From positions 90,001 through 122,000 of the forward strand of contig NZ_CP097765.1 in NCBI RefSeq assembly GCF_023585785.1: a DNA stretch of 32,000 bases, given 5' to 3'. This DNA is from Blochmannia endosymbiont of Camponotus modoc. GTDB taxonomy: Bacteria; Pseudomonadota; Gammaproteobacteria; Enterobacterales; Enterobacteriaceae. Below the pieces are notes generated by a model. That model had not been told where the DNA came from and did no database searches. It saw only the letters and a list, made by a program, of their open reading frames with translations. Positions 16,296 to 22,185 of this stretch are shown piece by piece; positions within the stretch are counted from its first letter, which is position 1, and every line of letters begins with the position of its first letter. The position numbers were made by a program, and so were the translations under genes.

Positions 16296-16760
16296 ATGAC
16301 TAAAAATGATATAGAAGTATTGTCCAGTAATTTAGCATGTTTTCAAAAAAAAACAGATAATTTACAAGGATTTATCCAGGTTAGAGCAGCACATCGACGC
16401 GAGCTTGTTGATGATTATATTGAATTAATTGCAGATTTAATTCAAGAACGTGGGGAAGCGCGTCAGGTAGATTTAGCATTAAGACTTGGAGTAACGCAAC
16501 CAACAGTAGCAAAAATGTTAAAAAAGTTGATTGCTTCTTCATTAATTAAGCATAAACGTTATTGTGGAGTATCGTTGACAGAACAAGGAAGACAATTGGC
16601 TAATGAAAATCATATACGACACAAAATTGTAAAAACTTTTCTAATAGATTTAGGCATCAATAAAAAAATCGCTCAAAGAGATGCAGAAGGCATCGAGCAT
16701 CATGTTAGCAATGAAACATTGTTGGCATTTATTCAATTCTCTAAGCGCTTCAATAAATAA
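16296..16760 (+). CDS. mntR: Manganese-responsive transcriptional regulator MntR (DtxR family)
   Basis: 154 aa versus 155 aa in E. coli. [53 protein letters not shown] closely matches E. coli ...[68 protein letters not shown] matches RDAEGMEHHVSEETL. Confidence 0.93.
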
Positions 16761-17867: not shown

Positions 17868-18798
17868 TTATAATCATAGTGTATATTTATAAAAATATTT
17901 TATTTTTGATAAAATTTTGTAAGATATACTTTATGGTTATTGTGATTTGATAGAACATATTATTAGTATAATTTGTTCATAGTAAGTTAATTTTATGTAA
18001 TTTAAATAAGTAAATGGTATATTTAATTTCGGTTGTTGTTAAAATAAATAAATACAGGATATTGAAATTTTGAACGATAATAAACAGTTGGTCTGACTAA
18101 GTTAAATTGGCTATAATGATATTGAAAATATTATAATATTTTCTTTTTCTAATTATTTAATTAGAAAAACTTTATCTTATGCAGAGAATAATTTGTGTCT
18201 ATCTATTTGATAGATAATATATGTATTTATATGCAGTGATACATATTCATCATTGTTGAGCAGATATAAATGTCAGTTTATTTTAATGATTTAGATATAT
18301 ACGATTGATTTATATTTTTTTAGGGGCATCCCTATTCTGGGGAGTACCTATTAACAACGAATTAAAAAATAATAATTTTTTAATTTTTGTGATGTTTATT
18401 TTATAATGTGATTTTTTTAGTAAAAATTTAAGAATTAAAACAATGCGATAATGTCTTATAAGAGAATAGTATTATTTTTTAAATAAATAGTTGATAGATA
18501 TCATCTATAGTGTTTGTTAAATTTTAACAAAAGGGAAATGTGTTGAATTTAGTTAGTTTATTTAACGAATTTATAAATGGGTGTTTTCATTGAAGAAGTG
18601 GTTTTTGATTGAAAGAATATATAAATAAATGTATTTTATTTTTCATATGTTTTTAGGAATTATTAGTGAATAATGCGTACAATCCAGGTAAGTTGTTGCA
18701 AGCGCATATTGTTATTATATGCATGTTGTATAAAAATTAAAAATTTTAGAGTTAAAAATCAAGATAATATGAATTATATTATTATTTATTTGATTGTG

Positions 18799-19437
18799 TT
18801 ATGTAATTTCGGTGCATTGCATAATGCAGTCATTGCATTCAAATCCCAATTCTGAATGAAAAGCGCAAATGTTACATGAGTTTATTTCTTTACAACAATA
18901 TAGTTTAATATGATCTTTTTTAGTGTATAAGTACACAAAACCAATGCTGAGTAATATTACGACCATTATCGTCAGGGTAATCATATATTTTATATGAGCT
19001 TTGATATTTAGTAAAATAGAAGATGATAATAAATTATTGTTTTGATCTGTGGTTTTATGTAGAGGGGAAGATACGCATGGTCTATCTTCGTGTATTTTTT
19101 CTATAATCAATTGATTGTTTAACTTTAAACCTCGTTTAGGAATAGTTATAATGGATGAGGAATCTAATCCAAAAGATGTTAAAGTTTTTCGTATTAAACT
19201 AATTTGTTGATTTAAGTTGCCGTTAGATGGTTCCAGTCCATAAGCTCTCCAAACGATTGAAAACAAATGTTCTCGAGTGACTGGCGCACAAATATCAATA
19301 TTGTGTCGTTTAATTAGCTCTTCTAATACCCGTCCAGCAGAATTAGATAATTTTACTGATGTATTGGAATCAGTTAATGATGTCAGAGTATACTCTGTAG
19401 TGTCAAATATTATAGTCGATTGAATGACATATTTCAT
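18799..19437 (-). CDS. ToxR/CadC-like membrane-anchored transcriptional regulator: N-terminal OmpR/PhoB-type winged helix, one TM helix, short Cys-rich C-terminal tail
   Basis: 212 aa. Residues about 8-108 follow the ToxR/CadC wHTH pattern (F....L.......L...E..L..L......V.R..L...VW.........L.Q.IS.LRK.L......I.T.PKRG..L): IIFDTTEYTL...VKLSNSAGRVLEELIKRHN..APVTREHLFSIVWRAYGLEPSNGNLNQQISLIRKTLTSFGLDSSSIITIPKRGLKL. There is a single hydrophobic helix YMITLTIMVVILLSIGFVYLY at about residues 151-171. The tail that follows is 41 aa and contains 7 Cys. An intact ORF of this length is unlikely by chance in such AT-rich DNA. Confidence 0.75.
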   Translation of the reverse strand: MKYVIQSTIIFDTTEYTLTSLTDSNTSVKLSNSAGRVLEELIKRHNIDICAPVTREHLFSIVWRAYGLEPSNGNLNQQISLIRKTLTSFGLDSSSIITIPKRGLKLNNQLIIEKIHEDRPCVSSPLHKTTDQNNNLLSSSILLNIKAHIKYMITLTIMVVILLSIGFVYLYTKKDHIKLYCCKEINSCNICAFHSELGFECNDCIMQCTEIT

Positions 19438-19672
19438 GTAATTACTCTATATGAACTGTACGTGGATAAATCAACATTTGCGTCAGCTGTTTACATAAGA
19501 TTCAGATAATATATTTTTTTTATTAAAATATATATAGATACTATAAAAAGTATTTCATTATAAAAATGCATTAACATGATTGTAATGCGTGTTATTTAGA
19601 TTGCGCGCGTTTGCAATTTATTTTTTGATAGTATAACAACATTTTGTAAAAATCTAGCATATTAGTACGTGT

Positions 19673-19715
19673 ACTGCTCAAAATCAATATCGTCTTAATA
19701 TTGATTTTGAGCAGT
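19673..19715. promoter_or_regulatory. 18-bp perfect inverted repeat (ACTGCTCAAAATCAATAT / ATATTGATTTTGAGCAGT) with a 7-nt spacer CGTCTTA, in the divergent spacer between the ToxR-like gene and the receptor gene
   Basis: Verified base by base: the reverse complement of 19673-19690 equals 19698-19715. It is the longest perfect inverted repeat I found in the window. No T-run follows on either strand. Its role (operator, RNA hairpin or relic) is unknown. Confidence 0.5.
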
Positions 19716-20034
19716 TAATTCTTGTGATAAATTAAATAAAACGTGTTAACTAAACTTTAGTTGAAGATATAGAAATAGTAAGTACTTTAATTTCCTCAGT
19801 GTTAGTGTAATGTTGCAAATTCAATGTTATATAGATCACAATTTCTTTTTAAGAAATATGATATTTGTAAATAATTTCAAGATTATTTTTTTAGTCAGAA
19901 ACGATCGATTTTGATCAAGATTGTTAATATTATCTATTTATCTGATTTTATATTAGAAGAAATTAAGTTTTTAATATATATTGTAATAATGATATTAGTA
20001 TCTTGAAAAGAATGCAATAGTTACGAGCATACAT

Positions 20035-22185
20035 ATGGTATATGGTAAGTTTTTTTATAGTCATGAAATATTAATGCATATGATATTATTTTTGATATGT
20101 TTTGTGTTAATCATATTTACTGTTAATAATTCTCAAGCTAATTCAAATGATGTATCTGTTAGCAGTAGACATAAAGATACTTCGATATCAATATTTAGTA
20201 GCATACAAGAACTACCTATATTACTCCAAGGAAAAATGCATGATGATGTCATAACTGTTATTTCGACAAAAAATTCCCCGTTGATTTTTAGTGATTCTCC
20301 TGCAACATCTTTGCAGTCGTTGTATGTAATTGATGTTTCTGATTATTTAAAAGGTATTGCTGGATTCTCTGCTATTCGTAATGGAGGAGTGAATAACGAA
20401 CCAGTGTTTAGGGGAATGTTTGGATCTCGAATACGTATTTTGATGGATAATGGAGAAATACTTGGTGCCTGTTGTTCTCATATGGATCCTGTTAGTGCTT
20501 ATATTTTTCCTGAGACTTTTGATATTTTAAATATCATTAAAGGCCCTCAAACAGTACTATGGGGTCCTGTAACATCTGCGGGTACGTTGCAATTTGAACG
20601 ATATCATCCTCGATTTGATAAATCAAAAATTCAATTGCGTAGTAATGTAACAATCGGTGCAAATAATAAAATAGATAAAAATATAGATAGTATTATGGGG
20701 AGCAAATACGGCTATATTAGATTGATAGGCAATATTTCTCGTTCAGACGACTATCATGATGGTAATAAAGACCAGGTACATTCTGCGTGGTATAAATGGA
20801 ACGCTGATGCGATTTTGTCATTTAATTTGAGTGCAGATACATATTTAGAAGTCAGCCTAGGACAGGGAAATGGTACTGCAAATTATGCCGCTCGATCTAT
20901 GGATGGGTTATGTTTTGCTAGAGAAAGTTATGGAATGAAAATAGAAACTTTAGATATCAGCAAAATATTAGATAAAATTGAATTGCAAGCTTGGCATAAT
21001 TATGTAAGCCATATTATGGCTGATACTGTGTCTCATAATACAGAACTATCTACTGGAAAATGCTGTGGGTTTAGTAGTGGTAATATTAACAATAATGTTG
21101 ATCGATTAATATGGGGTGCACGAGGTATTACTGTATCTCAATGGGACAATATCAAATGTCATAGTGGCGCAGATGTTCAAATTAATACACATAGAAAACG
21201 TATAGAATCTAATTCTAATTGGAAAACGGACATTGTCTCTCGAGACACTGGTATATTTACCGAATTGATCGTTGATTCATTGTCAAACAGAAGATTTATT
21301 GGAGGGACACGACTGGAATACAGTGTAATTAATTTTAATAATTGTTCTAAATATAAACGACATGGTATAGTATATCCTGCTGGGTTTGTACGCTATGAAG
21401 ATAATATCAATCCGTTGTTGTCGTATTATATTGGTGTAGGTACAAGTTTTCGTTTGCCTGATTATTGGGAGTTATCTTATACTAAATCCGGAGAAAATAT
21501 TAATAATATAGATGATATTTTAAAATTAAAACCTGAAAAAACTGTTCAGATAGATATAGGAGCATGTTTTCAACATCTACAAATAAATGGATGGATATCA
21601 TCTTATGCTGGATATGTTAAAGATTTTATCGTATGTGATTATCGCAATGATGATACCATACAAGATGGTATTATTTACGCAGAGAACATTCATGCTAAAA
21701 TATGCGGAACTGAAGTAGGATTAAATTATCAATTTAATGAGCATTGGCACACTGCAACTAATATCTCGTGGTCCTGGGGCATGAATATTGATAATGGTTG
21801 CACTTTATTCAGAACGCCTCCATTGGAGGGTAGGGTTACATGCCAATGGATACGAGGAAGTTATAGTATAGCTGCTAAGTGGAGATTGGCATTGGCGCAA
21901 TCTATTAATAATTCGTTGATGTCACAGGAATCTTTTGTTTCTAGAAATATGTTGCCTCATACAAGTGTAAATTGTAATACTTCAGGATTTGGAATATTAT
22001 CCATGAATTTTGCGTGGAAAAGTTCCCAATTTTATAAATTTAGCATTGGTGTAGATAATTTACTAAATCATTCTTATAGAGAATATCTGAATTCGTATGT
22101 TCATAAACGACTTGGATATCCTTCTGGCACTCTGATTTATGAACCAGGGCGTACCTGGTGGATTAAATTAGGTATGGAGTTATGA
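20035..22185 (+). CDS. TonB-dependent outer-membrane receptor, OprC/NosA copper-receptor family
   Basis: 716 aa. The N-terminus is hydrophobic and signal-like (MHMILFLICFVLIIFTVNNSQA). A TonB-box-like DDVITVIST is present. The plug region NEPVFRGMFGSRIRILMDNGEILGACCSHMDPVSAYIFPETFDILNIIKGPQTVLWGPVTSAGTLQFER has the pattern I recognise from TonB-dependent copper receptors (RG..GSR...L.DG...GAC...MD.P.SYI.PE..D...V.KGPQTVLWGP..SAGT..FER). The rest is a long beta-barrel-like segment ending GRTWWIKLGMEL. The true start may instead be ATG 20074 or 20080. Confidence 0.85.
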   Translation: MVYGKFFYSHEILMHMILFLICFVLIIFTVNNSQANSNDVSVSSRHKDTSISIFSSIQELPILLQGKMHDDVITVISTKNSPLIFSDSPATSLQSLYVIDVSDYLKGIAGFSAIRNGGVNNEPVFRGMFGSRIRILMDNGEILGACCSHMDPVSAYIFPETFDILNIIKGPQTVLWGPVTSAGTLQFERYHPRFDKSKIQLRSNVTIGANNKIDKNIDSIMGSKYGYIRLIGNISRSDDYHDGNKDQVHSAWYKWNADAILSFNLSADTYLEVSLGQGNGTANYAARSMDGLCFARESYGMKIETLDISKILDKIELQAWHNYVSHIMADTVSHNTELSTGKCCGFSSGNINNNVDRLIWGARGITVSQWDNIKCHSGADVQINTHRKRIESNSNWKTDIVSRDTGIFTELIVDSLSNRRFIGGTRLEYSVINFNNCSKYKRHGIVYPAGFVRYEDNINPLLSYYIGVGTSFRLPDYWELSYTKSGENINNIDDILKLKPEKTVQIDIGACFQHLQINGWISSYAGYVKDFIVCDYRNDDTIQDGIIYAENIHAKICGTEVGLNYQFNEHWHTATNISWSWGMNIDNGCTLFRTPPLEGRVTCQWIRGSYSIAAKWRLALAQSINNSLMSQESFVSRNMLPHTSVNCNTSGFGILSMNFAWKSSQFYKFSIGVDNLLNHSYREYLNSYVHKRLGYPSGTLIYEPGRTWWIKLGMEL

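Follow-up and report, generated by a model that had tools for sequence, protein, structure and literature searches.

The 32,000-nucleotide stretch analysed here, from the Blochmannia endosymbiont of Camponotus modoc (contig NZ_CP097765.1; hereafter the window), carries on its minus strand a yqeI-like gene, and the encoded regulator is a reduced form of the YqeI/MarT type of ToxR-family co-component transcription factor. Its cysteine-rich C-terminal tail is homologous to a larger periplasmic domain that has been truncated, the co-component partner gene has been lost, and cysteines have been gained in the tail and are held there by purifying selection. From this we infer that disulfides form in the tail and affect the stability or dimerisation of the protein; the reading of the tail as a disulfide-stabilised or cross-linked stub, made by DsbA/DsbB and governing both properties, has in our estimate a probability of about one half.

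A ToxR-type regulator with a truncated periplasmic domain

Translation of the minus strand over 18799-18924 gives TKKDHIKLYCCKEINSCNICAFHSELGFECNDCIMQCTEIT followed by the stop codon, the C-terminus of a 212-residue protein, with cysteines at residues 181, 182, 188, 191, 201, 204 and 208, histidines at 176 and 194 and a methionine at 206. A preliminary description of the window had singled out this tail as short and very rich in cysteine (seven Cys, two His and one Met), and the translation agrees: against the cysteine background of 1.66% in the 22 other open reading frames (ORFs) of at least 100 residues in the window, the probability of finding at least 7 cysteines in 33 residues is 1e-6 (about 0.008 after multiplication by all window positions), and the other ORFs reach at most 4 cysteines per 33 residues. 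The window is AT-rich (24-37% GC), and the closest matches to the protein are Blochmannia proteins with no more than 95% identity. The gene is annotated yqeI (Bfl390) in published Blochmannia genomes (PMC4389277, PMC1360075), and Bfl390 was recognised in 2006 as a winged helix-turn-helix (wHTH) protein of the CadC type (PMC1360075); the tail goes unmentioned in both papers, and its pattern is previously undescribed as far as the searched literature goes.

The ToxR-like label and the single transmembrane helix of the preliminary description also stand. The N-terminus is a ToxR-like wHTH domain without a receiver domain, which matches Pfam Trans_reg_C (PF00486) with E=8.6e-5 and 23 bits, below the gathering score of 26.2. 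With the family profile, the best sequence match in the PDB is the DNA-binding domain of ToxR (1.5e-14), and AlphaFold2 (AF2), run on a 56-sequence alignment, models residues 1-110 with a predicted local distance difference test score (pLDDT) of about 95. Matches to CadC-type proteins are weak (NF007540, E=6e-4; CadC DNA-binding domain in the PDB, 1.5e-5). One transmembrane helix follows a variable linker, and it contains the only strong hydrophobic segment of the protein (residues 152-170, Kyte-Doolittle mean 2.55; runner-up 0.77). The lysines and arginines beside the helix number 2 N-terminally and 3 C-terminally, which is ambiguous for topology; the family architecture, a cytoplasmic DNA-binding domain with one transmembrane helix, places the tail, by inference, outside the cytoplasm, in the periplasm.

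The homologues form two groups, Blochmannia proteins of 197-229 residues (the 197-residue one, P0039, is cut at its N-terminus) and long forms of about 270 residues from Sodalis, Acerihabitans, Biostraticola, Wigglesworthia and related metagenome-assembled genomes (MAGs), several of them annotated YqeI. The Blochmannia tail aligns to the first ~40 residues of the ~100-residue domain that follows the membrane helix in the long forms, and the C-terminal ~60 residues, which make up 60% of this domain and hold three of its four ancestral cysteines, are absent from every Blochmannia sequence. The long-form domain is modelled by AF2 (mean pLDDT 77) as beta1-beta2-alpha1-beta3-(short helix)-beta4-beta5, with cysteines C3 and C4 on the last two strands, and its top fold match in the PDB is the periplasmic domain of ToxR, 6utc (probability 0.92, template modelling scores 0.51/0.57, E=0.13), with VtrA of the VtrA/VtrC complex in sixth place; this match is weak and still points to the right family. 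Judged by the model, the stub keeps beta1, beta2 and part of alpha1. The long forms thus have the periplasmic alpha/beta domain of ~90-110 residues and the window's protein has 41 residues in its place; the conserved C-terminal disulfide is missing, the strands with C3 and C4 being deleted and different cysteines being present instead. Searched alone against Pfam and against PDB sequences, the tail gave chance-level matches only, and a tblastn search of the downstream gap (17868-18798) turned up remnants neither of the missing C-terminal domain nor of fidL. The preliminary description knew of no homologue of the tail and took it for a new mini-domain; both views have to be given up, the tail being a truncation product, the N-terminal remnant of a ~100-residue, four-cysteine domain of the YqeI/MarT type.

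The partner gene has gone as well. In Sodalis ligni the yqeI-like gene overlaps a downstream FidL_like gene (Pfam PF15941, E=1.8e-21), and tblastn places a FidL-like gene directly downstream at 12 free-living or Sodalis loci, including those of Sodalis, Acerihabitans and Biostraticola; it finds none at the locus in Wigglesworthia, Sodalis sp. Psp or any Blochmannia, and neither the window nor the other Blochmannia loci have FidL-like coding potential for an adjacent lipocalin-like co-component. The co-component class comprises ToxR/ToxS, VtrA/VtrC, TcpP/TcpH, YqeI/YqeJ, MarT/FidL and GrvA/FidL, and the periplasmic domain of this superfamily acts via protein-protein contact with the co-component (Kinch et al. 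2022, PMC9214523). Two lineages that lack fidL have kept the full-length domain: Wigglesworthia (L002, L006, L009) with all four cysteines, and Sodalis sp. Psp (L004, a MAG), whose protein P0037 has lost two of the four conserved cysteines (AKS and HY where AKC and xC are expected) and looks like an intermediate erosion stage of the same system.

Three groups of membrane-anchored regulators invite comparison. YqeI/YqeJ of ETT2 (the type III secretion system 2 from E. coli), MarT/FidL of Salmonella pathogenicity island 3 (SPI-3) and GrvA/FidL of enterohaemorrhagic E. coli (EHEC) share the ToxR-like wHTH, the one transmembrane helix and the periplasmic C-terminus (PMC9214523), and the closest long homologues of our protein have the four-cysteine domain and the overlapping FidL_like gene of this type. 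Blochmannia departs from it in the cut of the domain to 41 residues, in having no FidL/YqeJ gene, in the loss of the two final strands together with the conserved disulfide and the partner-contact edge, and in 3-6 new cysteines. Against E. coli YqeI, BLASTP gives 26% identity (E=7e-14), mostly over the wHTH, with the alignment ending at EINGC/EINSC, and hhalign aligns the long-form periplasmic domain non-significantly (E=0.19) with C1 and C2 in register; support for orthology with E. coli YqeI itself is no more than loose, while the shared count of four cysteines and the FidL_like partner of the relatives support relatedness to YqeI/MarT at the family level. Vibrio ToxR/ToxS and TcpP/TcpH have the same architecture, as the PDB and fold matches above reflect, but there a full-size domain carries two periplasmic cysteines and needs ToxS or TcpH, whereas the Blochmannia stub has 4-7 cysteines and no partner. 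CadC is likewise a membrane-integrated wHTH regulator in which a periplasmic disulfide is part of signal perception; it differs in its large two-subdomain periplasmic sensor and in working with LysP, and its similarity to the tail is not detectable. The protein therefore descends from the ToxR/YqeI type but lacks three defining features of a co-component regulator, namely the full periplasmic domain, the partner gene and the C-terminal disulfide.

Cysteine replacement and selection on the tail

Exhaustively searched with a profile, 1.84 billion representative proteins yielded 1161 relatives at E<=1e-10, and cysteines were surveyed in the best 150 of them, 135 of which have a recognisable transmembrane helix. 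Exactly four cysteines follow the helix in 127 of these 135, over a median length of 100 residues, and E. coli K-12 YqeI also has four periplasmic cysteines. Two other truncated relatives (P0083 and P0119) have tails of ~42 residues with one cysteine, the single ancestral one, which indicates that truncation alone brings no cysteine enrichment. These two may be fragments or pseudogenes, and they serve as a natural control.

A position-by-position comparison of 19 long forms with 37 Blochmannia sequences locates the changes. Position 181 is F in 17/19 long forms and C in 34/37 Blochmannia sequences, position 182 is F in 14/19 and C in 36/37, and position 191 is Y in all 19 and C in all 37. C188, which corresponds to C1 of the ancestral domain, is present in 37/37; it alone is invariant across the whole alignment and is the only ancestral cysteine in the core. 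Further out, the long forms have K or R at position 201, Y, L or M at 204 and I, V or L at 208, where 13, 7 and 8 of the 37 Blochmannia sequences, respectively, have cysteine; all three are invariant in the window's clade. Cysteines have thus replaced conserved aromatics of the former core (FF to CC and the invariant Y to C), restoring the count to at least four.

With the clades ordered by a tree of residues 1-171 only, the basal symbionts of Colobopsis and Polyrhachis have four cysteines as xC-x5-C-x2-C...EC, most Camponotus symbionts have four as CC-x5-C-x2-C and some have five, and seven are found in the window's clade (P0001-P0006) and in B. ocreatus. The tail holds at least four cysteines in all Blochmannia but P0026, which has three and comes from a short Logan contig. 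The cysteine cluster of the preliminary description thus holds in part: four cysteines are conserved genus-wide under purifying selection (C181 or C201, C182, C188 and C191), the full set of seven is restricted to the window's clade and B. ocreatus, and His176, His194 and Met206, which had been counted into the cluster, are not conserved among Blochmannia and drop out of it.

The ratio of nonsynonymous to synonymous substitution rates (dN/dS), computed by region among the four closest genomes, is lowest in the tail core (residues 172-195, 0.045), followed by the wHTH domain (0.108), the transmembrane helix (0.164), the distal tail (0.186) and the linker (0.236). Every cysteine position switches between TGT and TGC from species to species, a synonymous turnover indicating that cysteine itself is maintained, and the changes from F or Y to C put G at the second codon position, opposed to the strong AT bias of a genome with 24-30% GC. 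The preliminary description had regarded a varying stop codon as a possible mark of a read-through artefact. The stop does vary (proteins of 207-229 residues), but only distal to the conserved cysteine core, and with the tail under selection this speaks against both a read-through artefact and a decaying relic.

That the tail is a functionless relic, with only the wHTH and the anchor of importance and the cysteines a by-product of drift in small populations, is accordingly disfavoured already by the selection data, and we regard it as very improbable. Endosymbionts do fix slightly deleterious changes, the stop position and the distal half of the tail are variable, and AF2 gives no confident fold for the tail. 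Such decay is difficult to reconcile with the lowest dN/dS of the whole protein, with synonymous turnover at the cysteine codons, with gains made by AT-to-GC changes opposed to the mutation bias, with the absence of gained cysteines in the other truncated relatives, and with four cysteine columns conserved at 92-100% over 37 sequences that span the genus, whose divergence covers roughly 40 million years (PMC4389277).

Obligate endosymbionts keep very few regulators, and yqeI is among those still present in each of the six genomes that Williams & Wernegreen 2015 (PMC4389277) compared, being listed for B. obliquus, B. turneri and the pan-Camponotus set (Table S3 of that paper); we found homologues in every other Blochmannia genome or assembly. 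The lineages can be laid out as an evolutionary series, from the full system (Sodalis, Acerihabitans) through loss of the partner with the domain intact (Wigglesworthia) and loss of the partner with eroding cysteines (Sodalis sp. Psp) to a truncated domain with cysteines re-acquired under strong constraint (Blochmannia). This suggests that what the regulator family cannot do without is its four periplasmic cysteines, rather than the fold or the partner.

Candidate roles of the cysteines

The free-living relatives have a periplasmic alpha/beta domain of ~100 residues with four conserved cysteines and a co-encoded lipocalin partner like FidL/YqeJ; the Blochmannia lineage lost this partner and the C-terminal ~60% of the domain, including the partner-contacting last strands and three cysteines. 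The residual 41-residue stub, predicted as a beta-hairpin and a short helix, is too small for a hydrophobic core, and the swap of former core aromatics for cysteine brought the count back to four or more. We propose that DsbA/DsbB oxidise the tail to intra-chain disulfides; where the count is odd, as with seven, inter-chain disulfides and covalent dimers may also form. Such disulfides would rigidify the stub, guard the regulator against proteolysis in the periplasm (DegQ) and within the membrane (RseP) and/or keep it dimeric, leaving the cytoplasmic wHTH active without a ligand-sensing partner. The tail would in this way serve stability and dimerisation, with a possible sensitivity to the redox state of the periplasm, and would not be a receptor for a ligand or metal.

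Periplasmic disulfides are conserved in co-component regulators and stabilise the domain, ToxR needs the oxidised state, and in the ToxR and TcpP systems the periplasmic cysteines govern disulfide-dependent stability, proteolysis and dimerisation (PMC9214523). Table S3 of PMC4389277 lists dsbA, dsbB, degQ, rseP and cyoABCDE in all Blochmannia columns and does not list dsbC, dsbD, degS, rpoE, copA, cueO or cueR by name for Blochmannia. Conserved extracytoplasmic cysteines under selection therefore coexist with retained oxidative folding machinery (dsbA, dsbB), with which an oxidising periplasm is expected, favouring disulfides over thiolates, and the retention of DegQ and RseP means that the ToxR-type logic of disulfides and proteolysis could apply in Blochmannia. 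The main texts of the literature on Blochmannia with dsbA, disulfide or copper regulators yielded nothing, the gene content coming from the supplement.

Several observations weigh against the disulfide-stabilised stub. With an odd number of cysteines (5 or 7), one thiol or more has no partner to pair with; vicinal CC and CxxC also belong to the classical metal-binding elements; and cysteines make up 25% of residues 181-208 in the window's clade, approaching metallothionein-like density. With dsbC and dsbD unlisted for Blochmannia, there would be no isomerase for the correct pairing of seven cysteines. AF2 models residues 179-184 and 187-191 as a hairpin and residues 205-211 as a short helix, all with pLDDT below 50, which gives no support for particular cysteine pairings and does not discriminate disulfide from metal geometry. 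Cysteine-dense mini-domains (knottin-like, metallothionein, CxxC Cu(I) sites) resemble the tail in packing CC and CxxC spacings into fewer than 40 residues, with cross-links or metal in place of a hydrophobic core; the resemblance is compositional, with no significant sequence or profile match, and the tail derives from an alpha/beta domain of the ToxR type.

The preliminary description favoured a Cu(I)-thiolate sensor, and in its general form this idea would have the cysteine cluster bind Cu(I), or Zn or Fe-S, with occupancy modulating a regulator that controls the neighbouring gene oprC. CC, CxxC and C-x2-C-x3-C, all present in the tail, are typical spacings of thiolate ligands. The neighbour is an equivalog-level copper receptor (TIGR01778, 484.6 bits against a cut-off of 472.45) and is divergent from yqeI in all Camponotus-clade genomes examined; the order infA-oprC-yqeI-emtA-mntR is common to the window, B. 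floridanus and B. vafer and recurs in four further Camponotus symbionts. Cytochrome bo3 (cyoABCDE), a copper enzyme, is kept and copA, cueO and cueR are not listed by name, so that a dedicated copper regulator is otherwise missing. In the intergenic region the motif TAAAAATCTAGC (plus strand, 19647-19658) is conserved in 7/7 Blochmannia genomes that have oprC, where it lies 155-235 nt upstream of where yqeI starts, and is absent from L018 and L019, the two without oprC, whose corresponding regions contain no CTAG at all. This co-occurrence partly favours a yqeI-oprC link, and the motif could equally be the oprC promoter.

We nevertheless consider a metal sensor unlikely, and the copper proposal, which rests mainly on the adjacency of oprC, is not supported. 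In the Polyrhachis and Colobopsis symbionts (L018 and L019, respectively; B. obliquus and B. turneri) oprC is missing and the regulator with its four-cysteine tail persists; as two lineages keep the regulator without the receptor, we rejected adjacency as a strong sign of regulation. oprC and tonB have been lost independently in multiple lineages while yqeI is kept in all six compared genomes (PMC4389277). The free-living relatives, Sodalis and Wigglesworthia have no copper gene beside yqeI, so that a conserved link to metal-homeostasis genes is wanting, and adjacency limited to Camponotus-clade Blochmannia is, in a reduced genome of ~790 kb, weak evidence. Of the candidate ligands the four cysteines are conserved genus-wide and His176, His194 and Met206 are not, and the known Cu(I) sites of the periplasm are mostly built from Met and His. 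The retained dsbA and dsbB favour oxidised cysteines, and the tail has no sequence match to any metal-binding family in Pfam or among PDB sequences. Two motif assignments were also tried and rejected: a c-type haem site (CxxCH), CNICAFH being CxxCxxH with a His that is not conserved, and a ZAS motif (Hx3CxxC), where the spacing does not fit and the His is again not conserved.

A reversible redox switch, in which oxidation of the cysteines reports the state of the DsbA/DsbB-quinone-respiratory chain and tunes transcription, would have its disulfides formed and opened as a signal instead of serving structure, and we give it a small chance. The tail contains CxxC, a classical redox-active motif, and cysteine number is still rising in some clades. 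With dsbA and dsbB listed and dsbC and dsbD not, the oxidation state would track DsbB and quinone status; yet the list contains no reductant pathway (DsbD) by which the oxidation could be undone, and the computed data do not separate a static from a switchable disulfide. There is precedent in CadC, activated partly via acid-driven reduction of a periplasmic disulfide, and in ToxR, which requires oxidised disulfides (PMC9214523).

Alternatively, the stub might bind some other periplasmic or host-derived molecule that replaces FidL, the cysteines serving for covalent or structural docking. Periplasmic domains of the superfamily work through co-component contact (PMC9214523), and a short exposed peptide under strong constraint is a typical picture for an interaction motif. 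But the partner-contacting C-terminal edge strand is deleted and no candidate partner gene lies nearby, the 930-bp downstream gap being non-coding and poorly conserved, and we think a new partner interface quite improbable.

A bolder variant, to which we likewise attach a low probability, is that the stub was rebuilt into a new cysteine-cluster input module that reads periplasmic redox or copper status, a minimal one-component transmembrane sensor arisen de novo. Copper shortage for cytochrome bo3 might, for instance, reduce the quinone pool, DsbB/DsbA would then fail to oxidise the tail, and the unoxidised tail would change the output of the regulator, including oprC expression where oprC is present. 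If redox or copper sensing were true, it would be a rare case of a sensor remodelled during genome reduction; if the input module were true, this would be one of the very few regulators that work and respond to signals in a symbiont genome of ~790 kb. The stub offers a natural minimal construct for disulfide control of the stability and dimerisation of ToxR-like proteins, and the pattern is clean and experimentally tractable, yet an elaboration of known biology.

Feature coordinates and gene neighbourhood

Table. Coordinates in the window of the yqeI-like gene, its parts and its divergent neighbour
Feature	Position	Strand	Basis
yqeI-like gene, ToxR-family membrane-anchored transcription factor	18799..19437	(-)	ORF of 212 residues plus stop; homologues; literature annotation
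Winged helix-turn-helix DNA-binding domain (OmpR/PhoB-type), predicted cytoplasmic, residues 1-112	19102..19437	(-)	Pfam, PDB profile, AF2
Linker, variable and low-complexity, residues 113-148	18994..19101	(-)	AF2 pLDDT <50 at 119-140; dN/dS 0.236
Lone transmembrane helix, residues 149-171	18925..18993	(-)	Kyte-Doolittle peak; AF2 helix 137-174
Predicted periplasmic stub, residues 172-212, 7 Cys, homologous to beta1-beta2 and start of helix 1	18802..18924	(-)	Alignments
Conserved core CC-x5-C-x2-C, residues 178-193, KLYCCKEINSCNICAF	18859..18906	(-)	Cys conservation, dN/dS, codon turnover
Distal clade-specific C-x2-C-x3-C, residues 201-208	18814..18837	(-)	Invariant within the window's clade
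Stop codon cutting off the ancestral periplasmic domain	18799..18801	(-)	Alignment; tblastn downstream
Intergenic DNA separating the divergent yqeI-like gene and oprC, with conserved motif and palindrome	19438..20034	n/a	Motif shared by oprC-bearing genomes
TonB-dependent copper receptor, oprC/nosA type (context only)	20035..22185	(+)	TIGR01778

The intergenic region also holds an inverted repeat, perfect over 18 bp and with a loop of 7 nt (19673-19715; ACTGCTCAAAATCAATAT / ATATTGATTTTGAGCAGT), terminator-like on the oprC-sense strand, with an imperfect third half-site at 19904-19917. L022, the closest relative, has the repeat too, and it is not obvious in L023 or L024; it may serve as an operator or leader hairpin for oprC. 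The receptor gene itself is apparently intact. In Table S3 of PMC4389277 the pan-Camponotus column is the only one with tonB; for Blochmannia the table names tolQ and tolR and does not name exbB and exbD, and rseP is retained although rpoE is not listed.

On the other side, emtA and the yqeI 3' end are separated by a gap (17868-18798) of 930 bp of non-coding DNA without an ORF, unusually long for a reduced genome, and no Rfam element was found in it. It is poorly conserved, with 82% identity to the closest relative and ~70% over ~120-150 nt (~18514-18655) to L023 and L024, and among Blochmannia the length of the corresponding gap varies between 247 and 913 nt. MntR, another metal-related regulator, is encoded two genes away (16296-16760; NF008273, E=4e-63), which puts two of the few retained regulators, the yqeI-like gene and mntR, within 3 kb; mntR is present in L019, and its Pfam families were not seen in the examined stretch of L018.

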